From: Anaerolineae bacterium
Lineage (GTDB): Bacteria > Chloroflexota > Anaerolineae > Aggregatilineales > Phototrophicaceae
Direction of reading: 5' to 3'
Length of the DNA stretch: 64,000 nucleotides
Assembly (NCBI GenBank): GCA_041751455.1
Contig: JBGSXK010000217.1
Location: forward strand, 69,526-133,525
Shown here: positions 12,831-28,516 of the stretch, piece after piece
Position numbering within the stretch: the first letter of the stretch is position 1
Layout: each line of letters begins with the position of its first letter
Program-made: the position numbers and the translations under genes
Notes under the pieces: generated by a model
Database searches by the model: none
What the model was told of the DNA's origin: nothing
What the model saw: only the letters and a program-made list of their open reading frames with translations

Positions 12831-12906
12831 CAGCGGCATTTGCCTGCTCGCGCTGCCATCGCTATACTCATGGTTACACAACGAGTACAGAAGTGGAACC
12901 TTAATA

Positions 12907-13962
12907 ATGCCTGAAAATCATCACTCATCCCGTGCTCTGAAAGCCACTTCCGACTCTACCACGCCCGCTTTAAAAAATGCGGTCGAGCTGTGGGCGGCGG
13001 CCACCACCAGCCCAGAGAGTGACCGCCGTCACGATTTGCTGCGCGACAAACAGAAAGCCCTTCTTGGCACAGGCACTCAGGGCACGGCAGCAGGCTTTTT
13101 TATCTGCGTGCCTAAACCGTTGGAGTCCATTACCCCGCTGGATGTTAAAACCTGGCAGGCTTATCTGGAAGACATGGGCTTAGCCCCAGCCAGCGTCTAC
13201 GCGCATATCAGCCGCCTGTCCAGCTTTTACGAGTGGCTGTTGAGCGAACCTGCTTTCAAAGATCGCATCCACGCCAACCCTGTGCCATTGGCCCGACCCA
13301 GAGCACCAAAGGCCTACCAGAGCGAAAAGACACAGGCGCTCAGTGATGAGGATGCGCGCGCGCTGCTTCAGGTTGTCCAGGCGGAAGCACTCAAAGGCAG
13401 TCTCAGCGCTCGGCGCGATTATGCCCTGCTCCGGTTTTTCTTTGCGACAGGCAAACGCCGCAGCGAGATTATCAACCTGCGTTGGGATGACCTGCGCCTC
13501 AGTGAGGATGCGATCATCATGCGCAGCAAAGAGAAAGGTGGTCTCTACCGTGCGACCGAGATCAATGACCCCGGTGTGCGCAGTGCCCTCTTCACCTATC
13601 TTAAAGCCTCTGAACGTTGGGATGAGGTTGAGAACCGGCCTCTGATGGAGCAGGACGAACCCCTCTGGCTGCGTCATGACCGTGCCGCTAAGGGAAAGCA
13701 GCCCGTCACCTCACATGGTTTTGTCAAACTATTCAAGCATTATGCAAAACAGGCTGGTCTCGGCAATCTTCATTTGCACCAGACACGCCACACGGTAGCA
13801 CGCATGGTGGGTGAACAGGCGGGTGATCTGGCCGAAGTACAAACTGTTCTCGGCCACCAGAACATCAGCACCACGCGGGTTTATCTTGATCGCATTAGCA
13901 TCAAGCGCGATAAACACAGTCAGCGCATCGCTCACCGCCTGGGGCTGGACGATGAAGAATAG
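12907..13962 (+). CDS. Tyrosine site-specific recombinase (phage-integrase/XerC-D family)
   Basis: SAM-like N-domain (VKTWQAYLEDMGLAPASVYAHISRLSSFY). Catalytic motifs are ATGKRRSEI (Arg), HLHQTRHTVA (HxxR) and LGHQNISTTRVY (His/Tyr). ATG 12907 was chosen because the ORF-track extension back to 12457 overlaps copCD out of frame. Confidence 0.85.
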   Translation: MPENHHSSRALKATSDSTTPALKNAVELWAAATTSPESDRRHDLLRDKQKALLGTGTQGTAAGFFICVPKPLESITPLDVKTWQAYLEDMGLAPASVYAHISRLSSFYEWLLSEPAFKDRIHANPVPLARPRAPKAYQSEKTQALSDEDARALLQVVQAEALKGSLSARRDYALLRFFFATGKRRSEIINLRWDDLRLSEDAIIMRSKEKGGLYRATEINDPGVRSALFTYLKASERWDEVENRPLMEQDEPLWLRHDRAAKGKQPVTSHGFVKLFKHYAKQAGLGNLHLHQTRHTVARMVGEQAGDLAEVQTVLGHQNISTTRVYLDRISIKRDKHSQRIAHRLGLDDEE

Positions 13963-14517: not shown

Positions 14518-14653
14518 AGCTTTGCTCCCTCATGCAAAAATCTTTTTCTTTTGGCCGATGATACCCTGATCTTCCGCCCCATGCCCAGTAACCGCAGGTT
14601 AACAGGTAGAGTCGCGGTGGGCATCAGTGGCGTTTTTCCAGTACACTGGGCAC

Positions 14654-15775
14654 ATGATACACTTAAACAGATGCCTATGGTTCGTGTTGGTTTTCGGCCT
14701 GCTGCTCACTGGCCTGCCCGCCAGGGGCCAGCCCCACCCCTTCCCTGATGGTGTGGTCATGCCGCTGGATATGTTTTTGCGTTTGCGTGCCACACCCAGC
14801 ACCGAAAGCGCCATACTCGACCAGCTTGCCAGCGGCACCACACTCCGTATTATTGGTCGCACGGCGGATAATACCTGGCTGGAAGTCGAAACTGAGCGTT
14901 ACAGTACGGGCTGGGTTTACGCAGACTATGTACAGGTGTTTGTCGATCTGGAAGGGGTAATGGTGCGCACAGATGCAGGGGCAGCGCTGGATTATGGGTC
15001 GGTGGTAATAGGAGATGTCGAAGCAGCCCGCGCAGTTTTCCTGCGTGGCCAGCAGATGGGCAGTCGGGCAGATGTATTCTCGAAGGTTGGCGACAGTATC
15101 ACTGTCTCCGGCCACATGCTGCATCCCATCAGCCGAGGCCTGTATCAGCTTGGTGATTTTATTTATTTGCAACCAGTGATTGATTATTTTTCAGCCGCGA
15201 CTGCCCGCAGCAGCGATTCATTTGGCAATACCTCGTTGGCCGCCGGGGTGGGCTGGTCGGCGGCAGCGGTCCTGGACTCCGCCTACGCCGATAGCGAACT
15301 GTGCCTGCCGGATGAGCCTCCGCTTAGCTGCGAGTACCGGCTTGTGCGGCCAGCCCTGGCGCTGATTATGTTTGGCACCAACGATGTGGGTTATCGCCCA
15401 CCTGCTGCTTATCGTGCCGACTTGGAACGTATCGTGCAGATTTCAATCAATGCGGGTGTGCTGCCTGTCCTCAGTACACTTCCCCTGCGCGTGGGCTACG
15501 AAGCCCAGGTAGAGCAGTTTAACCAGATCGTGCGCGAAACCGCCCTCGCCCACCAGATGCCGCTGTGGGATTATGCCCGCGCGATGGCGACAGCAGGTCG
15601 CCTCGGCCTGGATGACGATGGTGTTCACCCCTCTATTCCGGCACGTGGCTACGAAGGCGCTGCCGATTTCCGCACCTGGAATCTGCACTCCGGTTATGTC
15701 CTGCGCAATCTCACGGCGCTGCATGTGCTGGATGTAATCTGGCGCGAGGTTATCATCCCCTCTGGCGAAGCCTAA
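14654..15775 (+). CDS. Secreted SH3b-domain / SGNH (GDSL) hydrolase-family protein, paralog 1
   Basis: Signal peptide MIHLNRCLWFVLVFGLLLTG. SH3b block LRATPSTESAILDQLASGTTLRIIGRTADNTWLEVE...GWVYADYV. SGNH blocks are KVGDSIT (I), MFGTNDV (III) and DDDGVHPS (V). Paralog of 23457-24596. Confidence 0.8.
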   Translation: MIHLNRCLWFVLVFGLLLTGLPARGQPHPFPDGVVMPLDMFLRLRATPSTESAILDQLASGTTLRIIGRTADNTWLEVETERYSTGWVYADYVQVFVDLEGVMVRTDAGAALDYGSVVIGDVEAARAVFLRGQQMGSRADVFSKVGDSITVSGHMLHPISRGLYQLGDFIYLQPVIDYFSAATARSSDSFGNTSLAAGVGWSAAAVLDSAYADSELCLPDEPPLSCEYRLVRPALALIMFGTNDVGYRPPAAYRADLERIVQISINAGVLPVLSTLPLRVGYEAQVEQFNQIVRETALAHQMPLWDYARAMATAGRLGLDDDGVHPSIPARGYEGAADFRTWNLHSGYVLRNLTALHVLDVIWREVIIPSGEA

Positions 15776-17493
15776 GCCTCCAGCACTTCTCTGCGCCATT
15801 TGTCGCGGTTCGCGCCGCGCGCGATCTTGCCGCTGGAGGTTTTCACCAGCCACTGCGCCCCCACCAGATGCACATAGCTGATCGTCACCGTCGTTTGCTG
15901 GGCCACCGCCTGCCGAATCGCCAGCCCGATCTGCCGCCGCGCTTCGGTATCATCTGCATCCACTTCGGCTACCACCGCGATGAGTTCTGTCCCCTCACGC
16001 TCATCATCGATCCCGAAAGCCACGACTCTGCCGGGATGCACCCCGGCTACCCCGTTTACAATCGCCTCAATATCCTGCGGGTAAACGTTCTTGCCGCCGT
16101 TGATAATCAGGTCCTTCGAGCGCCCGACAATATACACCTCACCCCCGGCCATATAACCTCTGTCCCCGGTCAGATACCAACCGTCCGCCGTGAACGGATT
16201 CAGGTCTGGACGTTGATAATAACCCGTCAGCAAACAACCGCTCTGAATAGCGATTTCGCCCACATAGCGCTCTGGTAATTCATGCCCCTGCCCATCCACC
16301 ACCTTGACCTGCGTCCCTTGGATAGGCGCACCGCACGAAACTACACTGGCCGCTTCCGCGGCCTCCGTCTCAACAGGAACGGCGCGCAGGTCGTTTTCCA
16401 GCGCGTGACGCTGCACCCAATCGACACGACTGCCCTGCCCTGGTGGAGTCTGTGTCACGGCGAAGACATTCTCGGCCATTGCATAGCTGACCGCCAGCAT
16501 CTCCGGCCTCACACCATGCGGCGCGAAACGCTCGGCAAATAGGGCGTGACTCTCTGCCCGTACAGGCTCGGAACAGTTGATGAATGCTCGCATACTCACC
16601 AGCGATACACCCTCTAAATCTCGCTGGCGGATGCGCCGGGCACAGTGGTTATAGGCGAAGTTCGGCAGCCAGCATAATGTCCCGCCGTAATCATGAATGG
16701 CACGCAGCAGCATGGCCGGATGACGCACCCAATCAAACGGTGACATCAGCACCAGTGGCACACCTTGCACCAGCGGCAGCAGAAACCCGGCGATCAACCC
16801 CATATCATGATACAGCGGCAGCCAGCTCACGATCACATCATGCTCGTTCAGAGCAATCGCCGCGCTGTATGCCGCCAGTTGATTCAGCACTGCCACATGA
16901 CTCAGTGCCACGCCTTTTTGCAGCCCTGTGGTCCCGCTGGAATGTTGCAAAAAGGCAATATCATGTCCGTTTACTGCCTGCCTCTTTCCCCATTGTGGGA
17001 GAGCGGCTTGGGCTGAGGGAGAAATATCCCCATACACTGCGCATCCGACTACCTCTGCCAGTTCCGGCGCGAACTCGTCTGTGGTCAGGACGGCTTTCAC
17101 GTCCGACAGGCGCACCAGTTCGGCCATGCTCTGCATATAAATCGCCGGGTCCAGCTTTTCTGTCAGTGTGGGAAACATCGACGGAATCGCGCCGATCCAC
17201 AGTGCTCCCCAGAACGCGTAAATGCTTTCGAGGTTCTGCGTATGTGCGATCACCACCAGGTCGCGCGCGCCGACTCCCCTGCCCCGCAGTGCGTCAGCAT
17301 AATGTAGGACAGCCGTACGAAAATCCGCCCGTGTAACGGTAATCGCCGCTGCGTCGGTTTCCAGGTAGATGATGGCTGGCGCGTTTATATCTGCGCTTGT
17401 CAGTGTGACCGCGTCGAGCAGGGAGTGGAGCTTTACAGGAGGCTGAGAGGTATGCATGGCAGTTATTTTTATAGGCTGATAAATGCCGCTCAA
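15772..17493 (-). CDS. Fatty-acyl-AMP ligase (FAAL-type adenylate-forming enzyme)
   Basis: AMP motif FLQHSSGTTGLQKGV. FAAL-typical WLPLYHDMGLI and LPNFAYNHC. C-terminal YLTGDRG...GRSKDLII and SSGKI. The start is uncertain (TTG 17493 or ATG 17457). Confidence 0.85.
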   Translation of the reverse strand: MSGIYQPIKITAMHTSQPPVKLHSLLDAVTLTSADINAPAIIYLETDAAAITVTRADFRTAVLHYADALRGRGVGARDLVVIAHTQNLESIYAFWGALWIGAIPSMFPTLTEKLDPAIYMQSMAELVRLSDVKAVLTTDEFAPELAEVVGCAVYGDISPSAQAALPQWGKRQAVNGHDIAFLQHSSGTTGLQKGVALSHVAVLNQLAAYSAAIALNEHDVIVSWLPLYHDMGLIAGFLLPLVQGVPLVLMSPFDWVRHPAMLLRAIHDYGGTLCWLPNFAYNHCARRIRQRDLEGVSLVSMRAFINCSEPVRAESHALFAERFAPHGVRPEMLAVSYAMAENVFAVTQTPPGQGSRVDWVQRHALENDLRAVPVETEAAEAASVVSCGAPIQGTQVKVVDGQGHELPERYVGEIAIQSGCLLTGYYQRPDLNPFTADGWYLTGDRGYMAGGEVYIVGRSKDLIINGGKNVYPQDIEAIVNGVAGVHPGRVVAFGIDDEREGTELIAVVAEVDADDTEARRQIGLAIRQAVAQQTTVTISYVHLVGAQWLVKTSSGKIARGANRDKWRREVLEA

Positions 17494-17567
17494 GATACAT
17501 CAACCCGCCAGTCAATGACAGAGCCGACTTGTGCTACAATCAGGCAAACGAGTGATTGAGGTTTGAT

Positions 17568-18131
17568 ATGGCTGTCCAACTGAAACCGCAGATAACACAG
17601 GCTGACTTCGAAGCCTTTATCCATCTGCCAGAAAACCTTGACCGCACATTTGAACTTGTCGGCGGGGAGATCATCGAAGTGCCTTCAAATCCGTTTGTAT
17701 CCAAAATCGCGGCGAAAATTATCCTTTTCCTGGGGATGTATCTGCTGAACAACGACAGCGGCCATGTGACCGGGGAGGCCGGGGGCTACAGGGTCAATGG
17801 CGAGCTGTACGCGCCGGATGTGGCGTACATCTCCTATGCCCGCCAGCCCGAACTGGCGCACAAGGGTTATAATCCCAATCCGCCGGAAATCGCTGTCGAG
17901 GTTATCTCCGATGCGGACAGCCGTGATGAGCAGGCGACCCTGCGCCGCAAGCTGGCGAATTACCTGGCGGCGGGGGTGCTGGTCTGGGTGGTCAATCCCT
18001 ATGATCGCTTTATCGAGGTATATCTGCCGGGTAAACCTGTAGTGGTGCTGGACGAGAACGGCACGCTGGACGGCGGCGAGATTCTGCCGGGCTTCACCCT
18101 GCCCGTGAAGGACATCTTCCCGAAGGGGTAG
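17568..18131 (+). CDS. Uma2-family (DUF820) endonuclease-fold protein
   Basis: FELVGGEIIEVPSNP...APDVAYI...PEIAVEVISD...KLANYLAAGVLVWVVNP matches the PD-(D/E)xK pattern of Uma2 proteins. ATG 17568 lies 6 nt after GAGG. Confidence 0.8.
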   Translation: MAVQLKPQITQADFEAFIHLPENLDRTFELVGGEIIEVPSNPFVSKIAAKIILFLGMYLLNNDSGHVTGEAGGYRVNGELYAPDVAYISYARQPELAHKGYNPNPPEIAVEVISDADSRDEQATLRRKLANYLAAGVLVWVVNPYDRFIEVYLPGKPVVVLDENGTLDGGEILPGFTLPVKDIFPKG

Positions 18132-18280
18132 AAAGTTTCTGGCTTAGGGTGATTCCCTCCGTTTCTCATGACTCTGAATTTTGGCGGTTCCCTCACAAGC
18201 CATCCATAACCAAACTCCATTAACCCAACTCCATTTTATGTTACTCTATGACCCGGCGTTAAATAAAATTCGTCTGCTTC

Positions 18281-19345
18281 ATGTTTCAAAAAGAGACTAC
18301 CATGCCCACCCTGCCCCATACCACCCTCACCCGTCTTATCCGCGATATCTTCGCCGCTGCGGGCACACCCGATGACATCGCGCAATACGTCGCGGAATCG
18401 CTTGTCACCACCAACCTCACCGGCCACGACTCGCACGGCATTATTCGCGTCAAAGGCTATGTCGTACAGATTCAGAATGGGTCGATCAGGCCGGAAGCCC
18501 TGCCGGTGATCGAGCGGCAGTTTGGCGCAATCGCGGTACTCAATGGACAGTGGGGTTTCGGGCAGGTGACAGCGCGCGAAGGGGCAGGGCTGGCGCGCGA
18601 GATTGCCGCCCAGCAAGGCATCGGCTGTGTCGCACTCAGCGATACCAACCATATCGGACGGCTGGGTGAGTACGCCGAGATGATCGCCCGCGCGGGAATG
18701 GTCGGTATCGTCATGACCAGCGGCACGATGAGCCTCCCGTCAGTGACACCCTACGGTGGCGCAGAGCCGCTCTTTGGCACGAACCCGATGGCGTGGGGAG
18801 TCCCACTTGGCGCGTCCCAGCCGCCGCTGCTGCTGGACTTCGCTACCGCTGCGGTTGCCAACGGCAAGGTGAAAGTCGCGCTGGACAAAGGCGAACCTTT
18901 CCCTGAAGGGATGCTGCTGGATAAGGATGGCTTCGCCACCACCAACCCGGCAGATTTCTATGGCGGCGGGATGCTGCTGCCCTTTGGGACTTACAAAGGT
19001 TATGGCCTCAATCTGATGATGGAAATTGTGCCGGTGCTTTTGAGCGGCTTCGTGCCCATCATGCTGGCAGGCTTCAAACCCGGTAATCCTACCCTGATCT
19101 TCGCGCTCAATGTCGAGGCCTTTACCTCACCCCAGCGCTTTGAGCGGGAAGCCGTCGCACTGCTTCAGCGCGTTAAGCAGGTTAAACCCGCTGCGGGCTA
19201 TGACGAAGTGCTGCTGCCCGGCGAGAAAGAATCGCGTATCATGACCGAGCGGCTGGCAAACGGCATCCCCCTGCCGGAGAAAACCTGGGCGGATTTAGTG
19301 GCCTGCGGGGCAGAGCTGGGGCTTGAGGTTAGCAGCTACACCTGA
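18281..19345 (+). CDS. Ldh_2-family (malate/L-lactate/sulfolactate dehydrogenase-like) oxidoreductase
   Basis: GHDSHGIIR, NHIGRLGEYA and FGTNPMAWGVP are family-typical. ATG 18302 is an alternative start. Confidence 0.8.
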   Translation: MFQKETTMPTLPHTTLTRLIRDIFAAAGTPDDIAQYVAESLVTTNLTGHDSHGIIRVKGYVVQIQNGSIRPEALPVIERQFGAIAVLNGQWGFGQVTAREGAGLAREIAAQQGIGCVALSDTNHIGRLGEYAEMIARAGMVGIVMTSGTMSLPSVTPYGGAEPLFGTNPMAWGVPLGASQPPLLLDFATAAVANGKVKVALDKGEPFPEGMLLDKDGFATTNPADFYGGGMLLPFGTYKGYGLNLMMEIVPVLLSGFVPIMLAGFKPGNPTLIFALNVEAFTSPQRFEREAVALLQRVKQVKPAAGYDEVLLPGEKESRIMTERLANGIPLPEKTWADLVACGAELGLEVSSYT

Positions 19346-19347
19346 GT

Positions 19348-19381
19348 GGGCTGCCGGTGCTTGTCTGAACGTCGGCAGCCC
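19348..19381. terminator. Bidirectional hairpin between convergent genes
   Basis: GGGCTGCCG (19348-19356) pairs with CGGCAGCCC (19373-19381). It lies between the Ldh_2 stop (19345) and the carrier-protein stop (19394). Confidence 0.6.
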
Positions 19382-19393
19382 GCAGGGGTCTCT

Positions 19394-19642
19394 TTATAGG
19401 TCGCGCATGATCCGCGCGATGATCTGATCGAAGGTGTCCATCTTCTCGACTGTCAGATCAGGGTCAGGGATATAGACGTTGAACTCGTTTTCGATGTACA
19501 CGGCCAGTTCCGCCAGCGCGAACGAATCCATCAATCCGTTAGTGATAATACCCTCGCTGTCGCTCAGCGGATAATTTGCATCGCGGATCAGTTCGCGTGT
19601 GATATACCCGCGCAGCTTCTCACGAATTGCACCTTCATCCAT
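19394..19642 (-). CDS. Acyl/peptidyl carrier protein, DltC-like
   Basis: 82 aa with phosphopantetheine site GLMDSFALAEL. DltC, as I remember it, has GIIDSF. Its ATG overlaps the msrA stop by 8 nt. Confidence 0.8.
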   Translation of the reverse strand: MDEGAIREKLRGYITRELIRDANYPLSDSEGIITNGLMDSFALAELAVYIENEFNVYIPDPDLTVEKMDTFDQIIARIMRDL

Positions 19643-20177
19643 GCGCGGGCGCTTTCAGGCGATCCAGATATAGGCTGCGGAACTTCCGCACTTTGGGCTG
19701 CACTATCATCCGGCAGTAAGGCTGATTCGGGTTGTTAGCAAAGTATTCCTGATGATAATCCTCCGCCGGGTAAAACACATCCAACGGTACGATTTCGGTC
19801 ACAATCGGGTTATCCCACAGTTGCGCAGCGGCTTTGATAGCTTCCTGCGCGGTCTGCTGCTGCGCCGGGCTGTGATACATAATCGTTGAGCGGTATTGTG
19901 TGCCGAAATCTGGCCCCTGCTGGTTGAGTGTAGTCGGGTCATGCACCGTGAAAAACACATCCAGAATATCCCCGTAGCTCACGATTTCGTTATCAAATGT
20001 GATCTGCACCACCTCGGCATGACCAGTGTCCCCGTTGCAGATCTGCTTATAGCTCGGGTTGGGCACATGACCGCCTGCGTAACCGGATACGACCTCCTCC
20101 ACGCCCTTCAGTTCATCATAGACGGCCTCGACACACCAGAAGCATCCTCCGCCTAATGTTGCAATTTCCTTTGCCAT
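19635..20177 (-). CDS. msrA: Peptide-methionine (S)-S-oxide reductase
   Basis: Active-site GGGCFWC, then GYAGG...NPSY..VC.G.TGHAEVVQI. ATG 20177 lies 6 nt after GGAGAG. Confidence 0.9.
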   Translation of the reverse strand: MAKEIATLGGGCFWCVEAVYDELKGVEEVVSGYAGGHVPNPSYKQICNGDTGHAEVVQITFDNEIVSYGDILDVFFTVHDPTTLNQQGPDFGTQYRSTIMYHSPAQQQTAQEAIKAAAQLWDNPIVTEIVPLDVFYPAEDYHQEYFANNPNQPYCRMIVQPKVRKFRSLYLDRLKAPAHG

Positions 20178-20288
20178 GTTGACTCTCCAGACATTCAAAC
20201 TTCTGCTTCATTATAGACGTGCATGATTAACAGACCATTACAGCACTCAGGCTTTTAAGCATTGCGCATTTCAACCTTACCCGTGAGG

Positions 20289-21431
20289 TCAAAAATCAGT
20301 AATCACTGTCCCGATGATCTCTGCTAACTGGCGCATCCCTTGCGACGTGAGATGTACTGGGCTGTCGGTGAACTCATCCGACGCAATGGCATCCCACAGG
20401 TCGAGATAACGCCAGCCATACGTTTCCGCCTGCGCCGCGTATAGGACACGGTAGGCATCATACGCCCAGCGTGGATACCAGAAGTTATAACGCAATTCGC
20501 TGTTTTCTCCGTCTGCAATGAAGATCGGCTCATTGATCAGCAGCAGCGGCACATCCCCAGCACGCTCCAACCCGGCAGCAATGACATCAAACGCAAGTTC
20601 ATTGGTCGTGAGCGATTGCGGTAGTGCATAACTCAGCCAGCTCAGGTCAGCTTCAAAATCATTCGCGCGCGGGGTATAAGCTTCCGGGTAAAACTGGTCA
20701 ATACCTGTCGCTGCCCACATCACCCCATAAAGCTGTAAGCGCAGCCAATCCGCCAACACACGCCGCTGCCCAATAATCGTGCGCTCAAAAAAATCCGGTT
20801 CACTCAGACGTGCGTCCTGTGCATCAAGGTTGAGGCCATAACTTACGATCAGGTTATGCACCTGCGGCACATTCCGCTGCACCAGTGCAGCATCGAGTTG
20901 TCTGCCCCGCTCAAATGATTGTAATGTCATCAGCCACACGATCATGTCCGGCGTATATTGCATAGCATAATCCAGCAGCAGCAGGTCTTTAGTCAGCGAC
21001 AACATCGGATGGCCGACATTGTACGCCCGTACTGTACGCCCATCGTCCAACATGTACGCCATAGCGTTAATCTGCCCGGCCAGCGTGTCCTCCGGGCGCA
21101 GCAGTACACCCCACGTGGCAGAGTCACCGATAAGTAGTACCCGAAATTCATCGGCAGCTTTCGGCTGGCTGATCTCGTGGGTAGCGAACATGGCTTCGAG
21201 GCTGTCCACGCTTAGATTATAGGCCGCTGGATGTTCGCCATAGGGCAGCCGTGCCCGCCCCGGCAGCAGGTGATTATGCAGCGTTAGCCTGCCGATCAAT
21301 GGCATTGGCTCCAGCAGCGCATGGGCCACGTTCAGCAGCACGAACAGCAGCCCTGCCTTGACGACGACCCGCGCCACGAAACGCCAGTTATAGGCCGCGA
21401 TGCCTTCAGTCAGCCATCCCCAGCTACTCAT
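20289..21431 (-). CDS. Membrane-anchored SGNH-fold protein, DltD-like partner of the MBOAT
   Basis: One N-terminal TM helix (FVARVVVKAGLLFVLLNVAHALL). SGNH block I LLIGDSATWG and block V-like DSPVHLTSQG. The ATG shares its A with the MBOAT TGA (TGATG), indicating translational coupling. Confidence 0.65.
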   Translation of the reverse strand: MSSWGWLTEGIAAYNWRFVARVVVKAGLLFVLLNVAHALLEPMPLIGRLTLHNHLLPGRARLPYGEHPAAYNLSVDSLEAMFATHEISQPKAADEFRVLLIGDSATWGVLLRPEDTLAGQINAMAYMLDDGRTVRAYNVGHPMLSLTKDLLLLDYAMQYTPDMIVWLMTLQSFERGRQLDAALVQRNVPQVHNLIVSYGLNLDAQDARLSEPDFFERTIIGQRRVLADWLRLQLYGVMWAATGIDQFYPEAYTPRANDFEADLSWLSYALPQSLTTNELAFDVIAAGLERAGDVPLLLINEPIFIADGENSELRYNFWYPRWAYDAYRVLYAAQAETYGWRYLDLWDAIASDEFTDSPVHLTSQGMRQLAEIIGTVITDF

Positions 21432-22876
21432 CAAGCCAACCCCAGCAGCCGCACAAACACTGACCATGCCAGACCCACATCCGGCAGCGCGAACCACACC
21501 CAGCCCAGTGTCACGAAATGGAACGTCAGCAGCACACCACCCACTGTATACGCGGCCTTCAGGCGTGGACGTTCACCCAGCCCGCGCACCCAGGCGCGGG
21601 TGCGGTCTGCCCACAGCTTATGCCCGAACAGCGCCAGCCCATGCCACATCCCCCACATGAAAAACGCCCAGGTCACGCCATGCCACAGGCCAATCACAAT
21701 CATCGTCGTCAGGTGGCAGATGAGCATGATTACATCATTGGAGGGGCGCTGCCTGCGCCGCAGCAGTGAACGAGACAGCGGCGAAAAAATATAGAAGCGC
21801 ACCCACTGTGTCAGGGTCATGTGCCAGCTTTGCCAGAAGGCGGTGATATTGGGCTTCAGGTAGGGTCGGTCGAAGTTCTCCGGCAGGCGGATTCCCAGCA
21901 GGATGCCAATGCCAATGGCAATATCGGTATAACCGCTGAAGTCGAAAAACAGGCGAAAGGCATAAGCATACAACAGCACCCATAACGCCAGCACCGATTC
22001 GCTCTGTTCCGCCTTTGTCGCGTCCAGCGCGATCAGCGCCAGTGAATCAGCGATCACAAATTTCTTGCATAGCCCCACGACAATACGCCCCGCCCCTTCT
22101 GTGATGCGTGCCGCGTCCAGCCCGTGCAGTTTTGGCAGCGCCACATCATCGACGATAAAACGTCCGGCGCGGTCAATCGGCCCGGCAGTATAGGCCGGGA
22201 AGAAGATCACATAAGTCAGGTATTCACGCAGGTTAAGCGCGGGCAGGATACCAGTCTGATGATCGCGCAGGGTGTGAATCAGCCGAAAGGCGACATACGA
22301 AAAACCCAGCCAGCCAATATCCACGATACTGGCGAGGCTTGTATCCTGCCCCACCCCGGCGCGCAGTATTGAACTTATCCCCTGCGCCAGCGGTTCGGTC
22401 TTGATGACTACAAACAGCAGCACCAGGGCGATGATGCCCACCTGATTCCAGCGTGGCCAATCACGCCAGCGGCGCGTGACCAGCAGCGTGAGCGCGGCAA
22501 TTAAAATCAGCACCAGAATCACGGTCGTGATTTCCGGCGGGCGTGAAGGCGTGAGTCGGACTTCCGGCGCGAGATAACGATTAGCCGCCAGCGCCAATAC
22601 CAGCCCGATTACCACCCCTGACGTAAGACGATCTTCACGTCCCAGGTAAGGCTCATGTCCTTCCGGTTGGCGAACGATCAGCCAGCACAACAGGGTAATA
22701 ATAAGTGTCAGCGTCGGCAGCCAGAAATCGAGGAAACGGATATTCAGGGTAGGTTGCAGCCAGTAAATGGCGATCACGCTGGCAATCATCAAAGCCCAAC
22801 CGCGCCAGCGCGGCGGGCAGAAGGCCGCGTACAGCAGTGCGCCAACGCAAAAAATGCCAATGTCGAGCAGCGTCAC
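21431..22876 (-). CDS. MBOAT-family membrane O-acyltransferase (DltB/AlgI-like)
   Basis: Polytopic protein with the signature FWQSWHMTLTQWVRFYIF carrying the invariant His, followed by GLWHG. GTG start. Confidence 0.9.
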   Translation of the reverse strand: MTLLDIGIFCVGALLYAAFCPPRWRGWALMIASVIAIYWLQPTLNIRFLDFWLPTLTLIITLLCWLIVRQPEGHEPYLGREDRLTSGVVIGLVLALAANRYLAPEVRLTPSRPPEITTVILVLILIAALTLLVTRRWRDWPRWNQVGIIALVLLFVVIKTEPLAQGISSILRAGVGQDTSLASIVDIGWLGFSYVAFRLIHTLRDHQTGILPALNLREYLTYVIFFPAYTAGPIDRAGRFIVDDVALPKLHGLDAARITEGAGRIVVGLCKKFVIADSLALIALDATKAEQSESVLALWVLLYAYAFRLFFDFSGYTDIAIGIGILLGIRLPENFDRPYLKPNITAFWQSWHMTLTQWVRFYIFSPLSRSLLRRRQRPSNDVIMLICHLTTMIVIGLWHGVTWAFFMWGMWHGLALFGHKLWADRTRAWVRGLGERPRLKAAYTVGGVLLTFHFVTLGWVWFALPDVGLAWSVFVRLLGLA

Positions 22877-22880
22877 TGGC

Positions 22881-23000
22881 CTAGAATCCCTGATAAATCC
22901 AGGTGGGAACGCTGTCTGTCGTGAGGATAATGAGCAGAATCACGATCAGGCACAACCCCACCGCAAACAGGTTTTCACGCGAAAAAATGCGGCGCACCAC
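22881..23000 (-). CDS. 39-aa single-pass micro-protein with C-terminal WIYQGF, DltX-like (not in ORF track)
   Basis: Hand translation gives MVRRIFSRENLFAVGLCLIVILLIILTTDSVPTWIYQGF*. The GTG sits directly after the lipoprotein TGA, with GAGG 8 nt upstream. The TAG lies 4 nt before the MBOAT GTG. The C-terminal [FW]-I-Y-x-x-F matches the conserved DltX tail as I remember it. Confidence 0.6.
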   Translation of the reverse strand: MVRRIFSRENLFAVGLCLIVILLIILTTDSVPTWIYQGF

Positions 23001-23393
23001 TCACCCCGCCTCGCCGCACCATTTCCACTCACCATCTTCCTGCACGACGCGATAACTCGTCAGCGGGAAGGTGGTTGCCTCGCCGCCGTAATCCGCCACG
23101 ATCTGCCCGGTGCACGTCACCGTACTCTGCCCCTCATTCACCCTACAGGCCATATCTTCAATCTCGACTCCGGTCACACTGGCGAAGGCATTCGCCTCGC
23201 GGTTCAGGCTGGCCTCCATCTCGCTGCATAGCAGCCCCCGTAATGTGTCTGCGTCCCCGGTGATTTTCGCCTGCAGGTAATCTTCTACCACCCGCGCCAC
23301 ACGTTCATCCCCGCTTTGTGTATTACCTCCCGCGTCTGTCGCACAGGCAGCCACTACCAGCAGCACGGGCAGCACCCACAATAACCTAGACAT
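23001..23393 (-). CDS. Small lipoprotein (NTF2-like/DUF4878-like)
   Basis: Signal peptide with lipobox LVVAAC. No catalytic motifs. Confidence 0.6.
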   Translation of the reverse strand: MSRLLWVLPVLLVVAACATDAGGNTQSGDERVARVVEDYLQAKITGDADTLRGLLCSEMEASLNREANAFASVTGVEIEDMACRVNEGQSTVTCTGQIVADYGGEATTFPLTSYRVVQEDGEWKWCGEAG

Positions 23394-23456
23394 GTACTCC
23401 TCCTGTTGTGTTGCAGCATGTAGAGGCAGGTTTAAAACCCGCCTTTATGAGTCTAC

Positions 23457-24596
23457 TCAACCCATCTCCAGCACCCGCCGAAGCTCATCCAGCATTCGGA
23501 TGGCCAGCAGGTTTTGCAGTGTCGTGCCGTAAAACGCCTCGTTGCCTTTGGTGAATTTGATATAATTCCAGCCGCTGTTTTTCATATGCACCCGATCCTG
23601 CTCCAGACCGTAAGCAGGCAGGATGCGCGTGGCCGCCCACAGGTTAATCAACGGGACTTCATATTCGGCGGCGATATCACGCAGGCGCAGGTTGAAGTTG
23701 ATCGACTGCCACCACAGCGGCGCGTCCGGGTCACTGCTGAAAGTGGACAGCACCGGGATCACCCCCGCCGCCAGCGACTCCTCCACCAGTTGCCGTATCT
23801 GTAGATCAAAATCAGCATCGGTCATATGCCGTACATCATTCCCGCCAAAGAAGATCACGGCGATGCTCGGCTTTTTCAGGCGATACTCGCAGCCCAGCGG
23901 CGACTCATTAGGACGGCATATCTCTTTATCCGCCCACAGCGGGTCAAACACCACATAAGTAGTCATGCCCACGCGCGCGGCTACACTGTCCTGCACCAGC
24001 GAAGGGCCAAAAAAATCAATCGTCTCCGCCAGATAATCATATGCGCCCAGTTCATAATTCCCCAGGCGCATCGGCGTGAGATACTGCTCATTGGCTGCCA
24101 CGCTGTCACCCACTTTGGTGATCACGTCGCTCAGGTTGCCCAGCCACTGCCCCCGCACATAGACAGCGCGCATGGCCTCGCTCACTTCGGGGATCACGGG
24201 CACCTCATATAATTCGGCCACGGTGAGATAACGCTGCTTGATGCGGTCTGTCTCTGGCACTTCGGTGTTGATCGGGATTTCGCTGAAGCGCAGACGTTCA
24301 TCCAGTGTCAGATAGCCGCTCAGCACCCAGCCATCAGCCAGCACCCGCCCATCCTCTCGCGTCTGCTGGATGCGCACCCAGTTACCGATTTTGTTGCGCT
24401 CGATGATCTTCACCTCCACCCCAGCAGGCAGTGAGGTAAGTTCGCGGTGGCTGTCGCTTGGCCCGGCAAAGACAAAAACTGCCTGATAAGGTGTGGCAAT
24501 GCTGGGATCGGTGGCCTGCTCTGGCGGCTGTGCCGCTGTGAGGTGAGTAAGGAAAAATAACAGGGTCAGAATAAGTGCAGTGAGTGATCGGGACAT
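23457..24596 (-). CDS. Secreted SH3b-domain / SGNH (GDSL) hydrolase-family protein, paralog 2
   Basis: Signal peptide MSRSLTALILTLLFFL. SH3b-like block VKIIERNKIGNWVRIQ...GWVLSGYL. SGNH blocks are KVGDSVA, FFGGNDV and QDRVHM. It is collinear with 14654-15775, including the shared CEYRL and GV(L/I)PVLST motifs. Longer starts at 24626 and 24647 are possible. Confidence 0.8.
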   Translation of the reverse strand: MSRSLTALILTLLFFLTHLTAAQPPEQATDPSIATPYQAVFVFAGPSDSHRELTSLPAGVEVKIIERNKIGNWVRIQQTREDGRVLADGWVLSGYLTLDERLRFSEIPINTEVPETDRIKQRYLTVAELYEVPVIPEVSEAMRAVYVRGQWLGNLSDVITKVGDSVAANEQYLTPMRLGNYELGAYDYLAETIDFFGPSLVQDSVAARVGMTTYVVFDPLWADKEICRPNESPLGCEYRLKKPSIAVIFFGGNDVRHMTDADFDLQIRQLVEESLAAGVIPVLSTFSSDPDAPLWWQSINFNLRLRDIAAEYEVPLINLWAATRILPAYGLEQDRVHMKNSGWNYIKFTKGNEAFYGTTLQNLLAIRMLDELRRVLEMG

Positions 24597-24679
24597 AACG
24601 CTTTCTGGGTTAGCTTCATCGGTCATCCGCGCATAATGGTACTGCATCAGTGGCGGATTGGGCTAGCGAAAGCGCCCTT

Positions 24680-27600
24680 CTAGTGACGGCGACCCGTCAC
24701 AGGGACACGAATAGCGATGCGGGTGCCCTCTCCCAACGCGCTCTCAATACTCAGTGTGCCGTTCAACCGCGCCGCCCGTTCCCGCATCGACTGTAGGCCG
24801 AGATGACCGGGAAATGTGCCCGAAGTATCAAACCCGATGCCGTTATCGGCCACTTCCAGTTGGATACCTTCAGGGACACTCTTCATGCACAGCTTGATAT
24901 GGGTGGCCTGAGCATGCTTGACGGTGTTATGCAGCGCCTCACGTGCGATGCGATACAGCATCTCCTTGACCGCCAGCGGCAGCGTTGGTTCTTCGCCCAT
25001 TTCAATCTCAGCCTGAATACCATGTCGTGCCTGAAGCGAAGCAGCCTGTTTCGTCAGTGCTGTGACCAACCCTTCATTTTCCAGCGACTCTGGCCGCAGG
25101 TCGAAGATCAGTGCCCGCATCTCGGTCAGGCCAGCCTCGGCCAGCGACAGCACGTAATCCAGCGGTTCGCTCAGCCGTGAAGGGTCGCGTTCCAGCAGTG
25201 CGCGGGCGGTGCGTGCCCCCAGTGCGATGCCATAAATCGCCTGGGAAACTGAGTCATGCAGTTCGCGTGCCAGCCGGTTGCGTTCTTCCAGCGCGGCCAG
25301 TTCCTGTGCCTGACGGTAGAGGCGCGCATTCTGCACCGCCACAGCGATGAGGTCTGCCAGCACGGACATCACACGAACATCCGCCTCGCTGAAATGATCG
25401 GCCTCCGGCGACTGCACATCCAGCACCCCGATCAACTGGTCACCCGCCACCATCGGCACCGCCATCTCAGATTGAGCGTTGGGCAAAATAGGCCGCAGCC
25501 GGAAGCCCTGCGGGTTAGTGATGTCGTTGACGATAATGCCCTGCCGGGTGCGTCCTGCCCGCGCCACCAGCGACGACTCGCTGTTGAGCGAGATCACCTG
25601 CGGTTGCGGCTGGCCCGTAGAGGGTGAGCCAGTAGCCTTGACCAGCCGTTCCTCCTCCAGCAGGTAAATAAAGAGGTGATGCTGCTTAAAACTGATCGAG
25701 GTCAGGTAGGTCACAGTATCCAGCAGTTCGCTCTCATTGAGGATAGTTGCGGCGGCAGCACTCACTTTGGCGACAGTTTCCAGCTCACGGGCGCGCTGTT
25801 CGGTTTCGCGTCGGGCTTCTTCTTCGGCCAGGTAAGCGCGGCGGCTGCTCACCACCGAGGCCACTGTCGGGCGAATTGCCTTCAGCAAAATCCGTAATTC
25901 ATCACTGTAACTCTGCGGCTGGTTCCAGGCAAAGGTCAGCACCCCCTGCCATTGATCGACAGTTTTGAGCGGCACGACCACCACAGCAACCCAGCCGACG
26001 GTCTTCAGAAATTCCTGATTTTGCCGCCCTGCGATGCGCTCATCAGTCTGCACATTCTCGACGAAAACCGGTGCGTCTGGGTGGGCATAAGCCAGTTGCA
26101 AAACGGGATAATCAGAGACCGGAAACGAGATGATCGGCAGGAAATTTAACGGCAGCGGCATCCGTCCATCACCAGAGCGCAGCGCCACAATATTGACTTT
26201 TTCGGTGTCATCATCCGTATACGAAAGAATCGATAGCGCCGCACCATACTGCTCCATCAGGTTGGCAATCGGCTCTAAAATCTCCTGTTCATCCGCCGCC
26301 TGCGAAAGCGCCGCGTTCACCCGCGCCAGCATTTCGGCCTGCCGCCGTTCCTGTTCGGTCTCTGCTTGCAGGCGGATACGCTCAAATGCCGCCAGCACCA
26401 GGTCACCAATACCTACCGTCAGACGGCGGTCACGGACAGTGTACCTGCGTGGGCTGTTGCTGTGGAAGGTTAACCCCCCCATCCAGCGATTATTGCTCCA
26501 CAGCGGTGTCCCGATCAGCGCGCGAGTCGAAATGCGTGTCCAGGTGGCGGCAGTGGTCGCGTCTACTCGTGGGTCATCCAGAATATCCTCAATCACCCAT
26601 AGCCCTTCACTCCCCATCACCTCCGTGATGGGAAAGACCGCTTTGGGGAAGCGCCGTTCCCGCAGCGAAAGTGGCTGGCCATCTGCTCCAATGGCCGCGA
26701 TCACATTCAGGTAATCGGCAGCTTCATAATCGTGATGATCCCATATGGTCAGGAATACCGCCTGCGAACCGGTATCCAGCCGTGCCACCGCCTGTAACAC
26801 TTCTTCATAACTCATCGCGGCATTCACCGCCTGGCTCATCTTATACAGAAATTCGCTCTCCTGGCGGGCTTCTTCCTCAGCCAGGTAGGCGCGGCGGGTG
26901 GCCATGACCGACGGCAGGGTTTGCAGCAGGGTCGAGTAAATATATTTTTCGTTGTCCGAAAACACGTGCGGCCTAAACCACAGGATAGACAGGATGCCCA
27001 GGTAATGCCCCCCACGATGCAGCGGCAGCGCCGCCAGCGCACGGGTGCGCATATTGGCCAGCATCTTTTCGCGTTGTTGGTTGTCCAGGCGTTCCTCAAG
27101 GGCCATGTCTTCAATCAGCAGCACTTCATCCGGCTGGTCATACCACAACGCCGCGTATCCATATTCCGCTGGGGACAAAATCCGGTGTCTGGCCGGGTCA
27201 TAGAGTTCGGCCTTACCATCCTGCCACACAGCGACAGTGTAAGATCTGATAGGGCGCTCCCGCTCATCCACATCAAAGTAATTCAGCGTCATGCCATCTG
27301 CGCCCTGCCCTGCGGCATACAGCGCGATAGCCGACAGAATCTCCGACTCGTTAGCCGCCCTGGAAAGCGCAGTGTTAATCTTCAGCAGATACTCGGCTCG
27401 CGCGGCGCGCTCACGATTTTGCTCAAACAGACGCATGGATTCAATCACGGGTGCGGCCTGCTGGATAAGCGCGGTATACATTCGGTAATCGCGCGGGGTA
27501 AACTCGTAAGGCACATTCCAGCTAAAGATAATCAGGCCGACCCAGCGCCCCCGATTATTAAGCGGCAAAATGGCGATGCTCAGGCGCTCAAACTCAACAA

Positions 27601-28516
27601 AATCCTGTCGTACTCCCACATGAAAGCGTTCATCCTGGTGGACATTCGTCTCCAGGATCGGCTGGTTGGGCTGTGCCAGCCACATCGACGAGATGTTATC
27701 CATGCCATAACCATACAGCTTATCGCCAATGCCCTGCCGTTTACCATCCGGCATCGTCCATTCGGCCACCCGCTCCCCCACTAAGGGGTCTTCCTCGGTG
27801 TAGCTGCCATTGAGGAATATCAGCGAACCATAAACTGCCCCCTTGGAGCGCGCATAATCACTCACCGCTTCCAGGATTTCAACAGGTTCTGTCGCCCGTG
27901 TCAGCCGGTTAGAGGCAGCATACAGGATGTCGGTTTCCTGCTTGGCGCGCTCAACTTCCAGTGCGCGCCGCTGGGTCTGCTCGAACAGCCGGATGGAGTC
28001 GATCACTGGCGCGGCCTGCTGGATGAGCGCGGTATAAATCCGCCGGTCGCGCTCATCAAATTCATGAGGCTCACCCCAGTTAAAACCCAGTATGCCGACA
28101 AAACGCCCCTTCACCGTCAGCGGGAGGATTACCGTGGCGCGTATACCATGGCGCAGCAGGCGTTCACGCCCCAGCGGTGGTATGACTTCATCATTCATGT
28201 TATCGTGAACAAAAATCGGCTGATCCAGATGTTCCATCCAGCGGAATTGCTCAGTCACCGTGCTGCGTGTGCCAAGGCGTGCAGACAAACCCTCTGCCAC
28301 CCACTCCGCCACCACTTTCTGCGATTCTGGCTGTCCCTGCTCGTTATTATCCACATACAGCAGCACACCGGAGGTCGCTCCGTTGGCACGGGCGTAATCA
28401 CTTACGGCTTCAAGCTGTTCTGCCGGGTTGGCGGCTTGTGTCAGCTTATTTAACGCGCTGTAAAGAATATCAATCTCGTCTTTCAGAATGCCTGGCTTGC
28501 CCATATTTTTCAGCAT
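24680..28516 (-). CDS. Multi-GAF sensor histidine kinase (HisKA_3 / NarL-partner type)
   Basis: About six tandem GAF-like modules, then H-box ERNRLARELHDSVSQ and HATPase motifs HNTVKHA, DNGIGF and GLQSMRERA. Confidence 0.9.
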   Translation of the reverse strand: MLKNMGKPGILKDEIDILYSALNKLTQAANPAEQLEAVSDYARANGATSGVLLYVDNNEQGQPESQKVVAEWVAEGLSARLGTRSTVTEQFRWMEHLDQPIFVHDNMNDEVIPPLGRERLLRHGIRATVILPLTVKGRFVGILGFNWGEPHEFDERDRRIYTALIQQAAPVIDSIRLFEQTQRRALEVERAKQETDILYAASNRLTRATEPVEILEAVSDYARSKGAVYGSLIFLNGSYTEEDPLVGERVAEWTMPDGKRQGIGDKLYGYGMDNISSMWLAQPNQPILETNVHQDERFHVGVRQDFVEFERLSIAILPLNNRGRWVGLIIFSWNVPYEFTPRDYRMYTALIQQAAPVIESMRLFEQNRERAARAEYLLKINTALSRAANESEILSAIALYAAGQGADGMTLNYFDVDERERPIRSYTVAVWQDGKAELYDPARHRILSPAEYGYAALWYDQPDEVLLIEDMALEERLDNQQREKMLANMRTRALAALPLHRGGHYLGILSILWFRPHVFSDNEKYIYSTLLQTLPSVMATRRAYLAEEEARQESEFLYKMSQAVNAAMSYEEVLQAVARLDTGSQAVFLTIWDHHDYEAADYLNVIAAIGADGQPLSLRERRFPKAVFPITEVMGSEGLWVIEDILDDPRVDATTAATWTRISTRALIGTPLWSNNRWMGGLTFHSNSPRRYTVRDRRLTVGIGDLVLAAFERIRLQAETEQERRQAEMLARVNAALSQAADEQEILEPIANLMEQYGAALSILSYTDDDTEKVNIVALRSGDGRMPLPLNFLPIISFPVSDYPVLQLAYAHPDAPVFVENVQTDERIAGRQNQEFLKTVGWVAVVVVPLKTVDQWQGVLTFAWNQPQSYSDELRILLKAIRPTVASVVSSRRAYLAEEEARRETEQRARELETVAKVSAAAATILNESELLDTVTYLTSISFKQHHLFIYLLEEERLVKATGSPSTGQPQPQVISLNSESSLVARAGRTRQGIIVNDITNPQGFRLRPILPNAQSEMAVPMVAGDQLIGVLDVQSPEADHFSEADVRVMSVLADLIAVAVQNARLYRQAQELAALEERNRLARELHDSVSQAIYGIALGARTARALLERDPSRLSEPLDYVLSLAEAGLTEMRALIFDLRPESLENEGLVTALTKQAASLQARHGIQAEIEMGEEPTLPLAVKEMLYRIAREALHNTVKHAQATHIKLCMKSVPEGIQLEVADNGIGFDTSGTFPGHLGLQSMRERAARLNGTLSIESALGEGTRIAIRVPVTGRRH

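Follow-up and report, generated by a model that had tools for sequence, protein, structure and literature searches.

What does a locus transfer, and onto what, when it is built like the Dlt system of D-alanylation and yet carries a ligase of another type? This question was raised by a 64,000-nt stretch of DNA from an Anaerolineae bacterium (contig JBGSXK010000217.1, positions 69,526 to 133,525 of the forward strand; hereafter the window), in which an earlier reading of the sequence, referred to below as the original prediction, had pointed out an MBOAT (membrane-bound O-acyltransferase), a DltX-like micro-open reading frame (micro-ORF), a membrane-anchored SGNH protein, a stand-alone carrier protein and a fatty-acyl-AMP ligase (FAAL) in place of DltA. 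On balance, we lean with modest confidence towards the interpretation that the locus encodes a seven-protein, carrier-dependent transmembrane acyl relay, which would be Dlt-like in its build but would differ from Dlt in its ligase and, in our view, also in its cargo and acceptor. The carrier-dependent, Dlt-style relay with a FAAL instead of DltA that had been proposed is supported by the synteny in related genomes, by the FAAL-specific insertion of the ligase and by the match of the MBOAT to DltB. Gene content, motifs, folds, synteny and gene fusions make up the support, and from them we infer all of the chemical steps.

Using the MBOAT to scan one genome per GTDB species, we obtained 76 loci, nearly all of which were labelled Chloroflexota, Anaerolineae, Aggregatilineales, Thermoflexales or Phototrophicaceae. 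The locus L076 from Magnetococcales was considered as a cross-phylum example and was rejected, as it contains an unrelated AlgI-like MBOAT having no ligase, carrier or SGNH neighbour. For the synteny counts, the window proteins were compared with the loci by tblastn, and a locus counted as well flanked when its sequence extended 3 kb or more upstream and 6 kb or more downstream of the MBOAT (n = 49, all from the Chloroflexota class Anaerolineae). The microprotein encoded by the micro-ORF was found in 45 of these 49 loci and the membrane SGNH protein in 44, and the carrier and the FAAL were present in 33 and 34, respectively, occurring together in 33; every one of these loci that had the carrier also had the FAAL. 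In 30 of the 33 loci having both, −14 to 158 nt separated the carrier gene from the FAAL gene. The commonest order was microprotein, MBOAT, SGNH, carrier and FAAL, contiguous on one strand and often followed in the relatives by an SH3b-SGNH gene and the lipoprotein gene; the carrier and ligase genes lay downstream of the microprotein/MBOAT/SGNH genes in most loci and upstream of them in three. The same arrangement was seen in L077-L080, L083, L085 and L087, which were obtained independently via homologues of the carrier or the SGNH protein, and the window FAAL was 50-71% identical to the carrier-adjacent ligases of the relatives. The co-occurrence of FAAL, carrier, MBOAT, SGNH and micro-ORF in relatives, which had been suggested as a check, was thus found (33 of 49 loci with carrier and FAAL), and the functional link of the ligase to the rest of the locus, left unproven by the original prediction, is now strongly supported by the conserved one-strand order.

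The same comparison separated members of the system from bystanders. The msrA gene was rejected as a member, being found in 0 of the 76 related loci, and its listing within the locus did not hold. Uma2 and Ldh_2 were likewise rejected as functional members, and their description as unrelated genes was well borne out by their absence (0 of 76 loci for Uma2, and L003 as the only one of 76 for Ldh_2). Since MsrA, Uma2 and, apart from L003, Ldh_2 are absent from the relatives, they represent insertions specific to the window lineage, and msrA, absent from every related locus, was inserted recently between the SGNH and carrier genes. When the ORFs around the MBOAT were clustered, the conserved families were the MBOAT itself (70 loci), the membrane SGNH (56), an accessory SGNH (51 loci, 79 copies), the lipoprotein (40) and the FAAL (40), the microprotein and carrier genes being too short for the length cut-off. 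No conserved glycosyltransferase, phosphopantetheinyl transferase, polyketide synthase (PKS), non-ribosomal peptide synthetase (NRPS) or lipid-synthesis partner was found nearby in this clustering, nor was any teichoic-acid or glycolipid synthesis gene conserved near the module.

As for the ligase (Pfam AMP-binding, 3.4e-51), its best NCBIfam families were of the FAAL type, namely PRK07768 (351.2 bits, cut-off 572) and PRK09192 (351.1 bits, cut-off 600), and it scored 227.6 bits against the FadD32 model (cut-off 975) and 112 bits against TIGR01733, the generic amino-acid adenylation domain; the DltA family was not among its 25 best NCBIfam matches. The best PDB matches were the Legionella FAAL (3kxw, 7r7e-g) and the E. 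coli FAAL (3pbk), and the alignment with 3kxw, 7r7g and 3pbk was almost gap-free across the FAAL insertion. This insertion of about 29 residues at the FAAL-specific position is common to the ligase and 3kxw and is missing in a fatty-acyl-CoA-ligase-like paralogue from a related genome. Furthermore, 38 ligase orthologues conserve SWLPLYHDMGLIAGF, WLPNFAY, YAMAEN and NCSEP. A His occupies what we take, from the sequence and the known motifs, to be the position of the alpha-amino-binding Asp in DltA and NRPS adenylation domains. Judged from these comparisons, the ligase is of the FAAL type and has no DltA features.

The carrier gave a weak match to Pfam PP-binding, with the phosphopantetheine Ser in the motif GLMDSF, the Asp-Ser of which was at least 95% conserved among 46 aligned orthologues and which resembles GLLDSF of B. 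subtilis DltC in the alignment. Two NCBIfam DltC models matched it weakly (28 and 20.6 bits, cut-offs 68 and 52), and its best PDB match was PltL, followed by DltC (4bpg, E 0.0024). Our homologue listings consist of the closest 120 matches, at least 56% identical for the MBOAT and SGNH proteins and at least 70% for the carrier (the best 120 of 1531 homologues); among these best 120 carrier homologues, one was named D-alanine--poly(phosphoribitol) ligase subunit 2 (P0344), the name otherwise being acyl carrier protein. A link to OlsH/OlsI was considered on account of the best NCBIfam match of the carrier, ACP_for_OlsHI, and was rejected, as the score reached 38 bits where the cut-off is 130 and OlsH belongs to an unrelated cytoplasmic lipid pathway. 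We propose the ligase as the loader of the carrier, and the carrier as the putative acyl donor to the MBOAT.

The MBOAT (Pfam MBOAT, 3.1e-24) matched DltB only among PDB sequences (6bug, 8jem; E 3e-46), its catalytic-His motif FWQSWHMTL aligning with FWNRWHMSL of DltB, and it scored 230.8 bits against the DltB equivalog model TIGR04091, under the cut-off of 375. For an AlphaFold2 (AF2) model with a mean predicted local distance difference test (pLDDT) score of 85.7, the best Foldseek match was also DltB (E 1e-13, target-normalised template modelling (TM) score 0.62), and HHAT and PORCN came next (E about 1e-5 to 1e-4, identity 11-13%). Three histidines, H352, H399 and H412, are invariant. The alignment with DltB reaches the C-terminus of the protein, which ends in ...VFVRLLGLA without YxxF, and at the N-terminus the MBOAT extends about 70-100 residues beyond DltB. 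By sequence and predicted fold, the MBOAT is assigned to the DltB type, as a homologue of DltB.

The microprotein consists of 39 amino acids with one transmembrane helix and has WIYQGF right before the stop codon. The architecture of the locus is well beyond chance: the micro-ORF stops directly after WIYxxF in all 67 loci in which tblastn found the microprotein, the endings being WIYQGF in 60, WIYANF in five, and WIYQRF and WIYQAF in one each. No Pfam or NCBIfam family, DltX models included, was matched by the microprotein at the thresholds used. In DltX, the acyl-shuttle motif FxYxxF lies at the extracellular C-terminus, and its Tyr bears the acyl group (PMC12148441). The microprotein resembles DltX in this motif and in architecture, with W for the first F, a match that does not imply homology, and by analogy it is proposed to be an acyl-tyrosine shuttle.

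The membrane SGNH protein contains the GDS and DxxH catalytic blocks, and D103, S104, D356 and H360 are invariant. Its AF2 model (pLDDT 85) has an N-terminal transmembrane helix (16-40) and an SGNH fold, for which the best structural matches were generic SGNH esterases and carbohydrate esterases; DltD (3bma, 7dxm) gave the longest alignments with a match probability of 0.97-0.99 and TM scores of 0.38-0.43, a weak match. Sequence homology to DltD was looked for and not detected against the PDB, and the likeness found is a weak structural one. In the earlier description of this protein as DltD-like, what stood was thus its fold, its anchoring in the membrane and the place of its gene, with no detectable sequence homology, and the protein is best described as a positional and topological analogue of DltD. 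The family is large, a profile search with the membrane SGNH having given 1049 clusters at 50% identity; the homologues were mostly annotated as hypothetical and without a Pfam domain, and the named members among the matches listed were all from Chloroflexota. Some members are fused to other domains, namely to a second SGNH domain in P0362, P0390 and P0397 (Anaerolineaceae and Longilinea among the lineages) and to a CE4 polysaccharide deacetylase domain (Polysacc_deac_1) in P0367. This deacetylase fusion, at L085:193-2157, lies directly upstream of carrier and ligase genes. Separately, L084 and L028, the latter with the full gene set, come from one assembly, so that two paralogous MBOAT-SGNH pairs exist in some genomes; the SGNH protein of L084 has an N-terminal extension of about 310 residues with extra transmembrane segments.

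Two paralogous secreted SH3b-SGNH proteins had been said to bracket the locus, and both are present. Paralogue a (Pfam SH3_3 3.6e-12, Lipase_GDSL_2 1.5e-12) and paralogue b (SH3_3 1.6e-9, Lipase_GDSL_2 1.4e-9) share about 32% identity; the a type recurs beside the module in many related loci, and the b type is usually paired with the lipoprotein. Among the 82 accessory SGNH proteins scanned, Lipase_GDSL_2 was found in 73, SH3_3 in 29 and LysM in 20. The accessory SGNH was the second most conserved neighbour of the MBOAT, and hence, together with the lipoprotein, it appears as a conserved member of the module, where the original prediction had seen neighbours. The lipoprotein passed the cut-off of NCBIfam NF051431 Rv0361_Cterm (40.1 bits, cut-off 37) and matched Pfam DUF4440 weakly; its domain is of the NTF2-like/Rv0361 C-terminal type, Rv0361 representing a mycobacterial membrane protein family. 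Besides GDS/DxxH, the residues C244, C253 and E254 were invariant in the 82 accessory SGNH proteins (alignment A2, numbering of 23460-24647), which suggests a conserved disulfide between C244 and C253 near the active site. Both SH3b and LysM bind peptidoglycan, as modules that are unrelated to each other. From the SH3b/LysM modules and the deacetylase fusion, the relay would end in the layer of peptidoglycan or wall glycan, and the membrane SGNH proteins that have a second SGNH domain fused to them imply a functional tie with the accessory SGNH.

The following scheme is consistent with these features. A carboxylic acid in free form, in all probability a fatty acid, would be adenylated by the FAAL-type ligase and then loaded on the 82-residue carrier, to whose phosphopantetheine arm it would be joined as a thioester, as family membership and the conserved adjacency of the two genes suggest. 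From the homology to DltB and the likeness to DltX, the DltB-type MBOAT is expected to accept the acyl group on the cytoplasmic side, with the carrier as donor, and to esterify the invariant Tyr of WIYQGF in the microprotein at the outer face. By analogy with DltD, the acyl group may then pass to the catalytic Ser of the membrane-anchored SGNH protein. In the final step, a glycan of the cell wall would be acylated, most probably peptidoglycan itself or a polymer attached to it, either directly or via the secreted SH3b/LysM SGNH enzymes, with the lipoprotein as a putative accessory. Alternatively, one SGNH paralogue or several of them may act as an esterase that takes the modification off.

A divergent variant of the module was found at L081:7431-13498, where a 41-residue microprotein ending in TWIYQGF, an MBOAT and a membrane SGNH protein are followed by an 828-residue fusion protein and a second alpha/beta hydrolase. 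The fusion protein joins an alpha/beta hydrolase to an enzyme of the long-chain-fatty-acid-CoA-ligase type, which scored 463 bits against both PRK06710 and PRK05605; this ligase has no FAAL insertion, and the locus has no carrier protein. The outer module is thus paired twice with families that are classed as fatty-acid-activating. Because of the FAAL assignment and the long-chain acyl-CoA-ligase-type partner in L081, the evidence speaks for a fatty acid as the probable cargo, more than for D-alanine or some other small acid, and we count the position of HHAT and PORCN as the next structural matches of the modelled MBOAT as a further pointer to a fatty cargo.

Several observations weigh against this interpretation. 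With regard to the unity of the locus, 15 of the 49 well-flanked loci had no carrier or ligase within 10 kb; L002 and L003, the closest relatives with downstream sequence, are broken after the carrier, with the ligase elsewhere; in the window itself two opposite-strand genes lie between carrier and ligase; the WIYANF subfamily had no carrier or ligase in 5 of 5 loci over the available flanks (L022, L027, L035, L070 and L073), and its donor may be encoded elsewhere or be a different one; and the MBOAT-SGNH pairs at L084:2380-5850 and L082:6553-9155 had no microprotein, carrier or ligase nearby. The separation in the window, the 15 loci, the L082 and L084 pairs and the carrier-less, CoA-ligase-type L081 would all fit a ligase and carrier that work elsewhere, for instance in the synthesis of lipids or polyketides, next to an MBOAT and SGNH protein that use acyl-CoA like PatA/PatB and AlgI/AlgJ. 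However, the tight, often overlapping adjacency in 33 of 49 loci and the lack of a conserved PKS, NRPS or lipid-synthesis partner around the MBOAT argue otherwise, as does the split DltB/DltX type of the MBOAT, which is the carrier-using one, the CoA-using MBOATs having a fused motif (PMC12148441), and such a separate pathway is regarded as very improbable. As to the cargo, the carrier is closer to aminoacyl/peptidyl carriers than to fatty-acid acyl carrier proteins, and the ligase falls under the curated cut-off of every FAAL family and has YAMAEN and NCSEP in place of the YGLAE/YGMAE and GAEP of the three aligned FAAL structures. Since these motifs are replaced, the ligase represents a distinct FAAL subfamily, and the substitutions, which we take to be near the acyl pocket, leave room for an unusual substrate. 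We also know of no precedent for a long acyl chain on a DltX-type tyrosine. The same relay might therefore carry an acid that is small or out of the ordinary, for example a short, hydroxy, branched or amino acid, tuning wall charge or chemistry in the manner of D-alanylation: the prolyl carrier PltL and DltC are the best structural relatives of the carrier, one orthologue (P0344) is named as DltC by NCBI, the ligase scores stay under all the curated cut-offs, and the Ala for Gly of YGLAE and the CS for GA of GAEP might narrow the ligase pocket. Against this, the best family and structure matches of the ligase are all medium- or long-chain FAALs (351 bits versus 112 bits for TIGR01733, with no DltA in the best 25), no Asp occupies the alpha-amino-binding position, and the carrier-less L081 has an enzyme of the long-chain acyl-CoA-ligase type. 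A non-fatty cargo is thus considered distinctly unlikely.

With regard to the acceptor end, the membrane SGNH protein gave no sequence match to DltD in the PDB, whether searched as a single sequence or as a profile, and the SH3b/LysM modules mark the location of the accessory enzymes, not the acyl acceptor. As an alternative, the acyl group might end up on a glycolipid of the membrane, on a secondary polymer, teichoic-acid-like or otherwise, or on a protein that is secreted, and the SGNH proteins that bind the wall would then be esterases or unrelated wall enzymes. The prototype supports such a reading, as Dlt acylates lipoteichoic acid and not peptidoglycan (PMC12148441); SGNH proteins are often esterases, the top structural matches being carbohydrate esterases, and SH3b and LysM serve only to bring a protein to the wall. 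On the other hand, the rank of the accessory SGNH as the second most conserved neighbour of the MBOAT (51 loci), the occasional fusion of an accessory-type SGNH to the membrane SGNH, the CE4 polysaccharide deacetylase fusion, which points to a glycan, and the lack of a conserved teichoic-acid or glycolipid synthesis gene nearby speak for a wall glycan, and we judge an acceptor other than peptidoglycan to be unlikely. When a fatty cargo and a wall acceptor are combined with the preferred relay, the most specific form of the hypothesis is that many Anaerolineae covalently lipidate peptidoglycan or a wall-bound glycan through a FAAL, a carrier and a DltB/DltX-type shuttle, which we put forward tentatively, as a possibility that falls short of being probable.

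Should the relay operate as proposed, the tyrosine-shuttle mechanism would reach a new class of cargo, and a new covalent modification would be added to the cell wall of Chloroflexota, a phylum with a poorly understood envelope; a defined gene set would also be at hand for reconstitution and for mass spectrometry of muropeptides. If wall lipidation were true, it would constitute a bacterial counterpart of the HHAT/PORCN-type extracytoplasmic lipidation and could provide a monoderm cell with a hydrophobic wall layer.

As summarized in Table 1, all the genes and motifs named in the original prediction were recovered by ORF analysis and by Pfam and NCBIfam searches at their expected positions, and the window contains one ANL ligase, one carrier, one MBOAT and one membrane SGNH of such type. 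The junctions described as translationally coupled were likewise confirmed: the TGA of the lipoprotein gene abuts the GTG start of the micro-ORF (0 nt between), a 4-nt spacing separates the micro-ORF stop from the MBOAT start, the MBOAT stop overlaps the ATG of the membrane SGNH gene by 1 nt, and the MsrA and carrier-protein genes overlap by 8 nt in an apparent translational coupling. The distance from carrier to ligase is 1.9 kb. The ATG taken as the probable start of SH3b-SGNH b is internal to its ORF, opens the sequence MSRSLTAL and coincides with the end coordinate of the locus as originally predicted. Scans of the window for promoters and terminators gave counts equal to or under the shuffled expectation and were uninformative.

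Table 1. Features of the acyl-relay locus and of the genes interspersed with it (coordinates within the window)
Feature	Coordinates	Strand	Remarks
SH3b-SGNH paralogue a, secreted	14627-15775	plus	convergent with the ligase gene, 4-nt overlap
FAAL-type ligase	15772-17493	minus	WLPLYHDMGLI, PNFAY; probable start at ATG 17457
Uma2 (outside the module)	17556-18131	plus	Pfam; between carrier and ligase
Ldh_2 (outside the module)	18281-19345	plus	Pfam; between carrier and ligase
Stand-alone carrier protein, 82 aa	19394-19642	minus	GLMDSF; between Ldh_2 and MsrA
MsrA (outside the module)	19635-20198	minus	Pfam
Membrane-anchored SGNH protein, 380 aa (called gene P0121)	20289-21431	minus	LLIGDSATWG and DSPVH
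MBOAT, 481 aa	21431-22876	minus	contains FWQSWHMTLTQW
DltX-like micro-ORF, 39 aa	22881-23000	minus	ends in WIYQGF; full sequence MVRRIFSRENLFAVGLCLIVILLIILTTDSVPTWIYQGF
Small lipoprotein	23001-23393	minus	lipobox VAAC
SH3b-SGNH paralogue b, secreted	23457-24647	minus	probable start at ATG 24596

Several neighbouring genes are also worth recording. A tyrosine recombinase of the Phage_integrase family is encoded at 12868-13962 (plus strand), 0.7 kb upstream of the SH3b-SGNH/FAAL end, and may be linked to the rearrangement that parted the ligase from the carrier in the window lineage. Directly upstream of the module, at 24680-28516 (minus strand), lies the gene of a 1278-residue histidine kinase, in which several GAF domains are combined with HisKA_3 and HATPase_c, and this adjacency of kinase and module is also seen by nucleotide synteny in the closest relative, L001. 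At 10080-12830 (plus strand), a 916-residue protein fuses CopC, CopD and YtkA-like domains, and its C-terminal part of about 350 residues has no Pfam match.

Among the known systems, the closest in build is Dlt of Firmicutes (DltXABCD), with which the locus shares an MBOAT homologous to DltB with the catalytic His, a separate microprotein with a single transmembrane segment and aromatic-x-Tyr-x-x-Phe at its very C-terminal end, a stand-alone phosphopantetheinyl carrier whose gene adjoins that of an ANL-superfamily ligase, and a membrane-anchored extracytoplasmic SGNH protein encoded right after the MBOAT. It differs from Dlt in its ligase, which is of the FAAL type with the FAAL insertion where Dlt has DltA; in an SGNH protein for which sequence homology to DltD could not be detected; in a microprotein that fits no DltX model and shows Trp at the position of the first Phe; in the N-terminal extension of the MBOAT; in gene order; and in having SH3b/LysM SGNH enzymes and a lipoprotein as extra conserved members. 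Since the defining DltA test failed and the matches to DltC and DltD were weak, the locus is better not classed as a dlt operon. To our knowledge, moreover, teichoic acids are not established in the host phylum Chloroflexota.

The systems for O-acetylation of peptidoglycan (PatA/PatB), alginate (AlgI/J/F/X) and cellulose (WssH/I) resemble the present one in combining an MBOAT with extracytoplasmic SGNH-type transferases that act on glycans. The alginate system includes membrane-anchored and soluble, glycan-binding SGNH-like proteins and a small accessory protein, a set that the present one parallels. PatA/B, AlgI/J/X and WssH/I use acetyl-CoA as the donor without a carrier or ligase, and have FxYxxF fused to the MBOAT at its C-terminal end (PMC12148441). 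This fused motif, carried there on two extra transmembrane helices, is replaced here by a separate microprotein, and a ligase and carrier are conserved in addition. The known pairs of FAAL and carrier (mycobacterial FadD32 and FadD28, Legionella, E. coli) share with our pair the FAAL insertion and the adjoining carrier gene, and FAAL structures are the best matches of our ligase. Known FAALs pass their acyl chains to cytoplasmic PKS, NRPS or lipid-assembly enzymes, whereas the conserved partner of the present FAAL is a DltB-type MBOAT relay, a putative acyl exporter. As for the eukaryotic protein-lipidating MBOATs HHAT and PORCN, they take a long fatty acyl group on the cytoplasmic side and transfer it to an acceptor that is extracytoplasmic or lumenal, as is supposed for the present relay, but use an acyl-CoA donor and acylate proteins directly, with no microprotein or SGNH relay.

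In a literature search, which did not cover the bioinformatic survey of Schultz 2023 (Nat Microbiol), we found no combination of a FAAL with a bacterial MBOAT and no Dlt-like system in Chloroflexota. According to a mechanistic paper of 2025, the MBOAT/SGNH pathways other than Dlt have neither a carrier protein nor a DltX-like microprotein (PMC12148441). Set beside these pathways, the locus is, as judged from its predicted proteins, a second MBOAT/SGNH family with a carrier and a DltX-type microprotein, joined in this case to a FAAL-type ligase and to wall-binding SGNH proteins.

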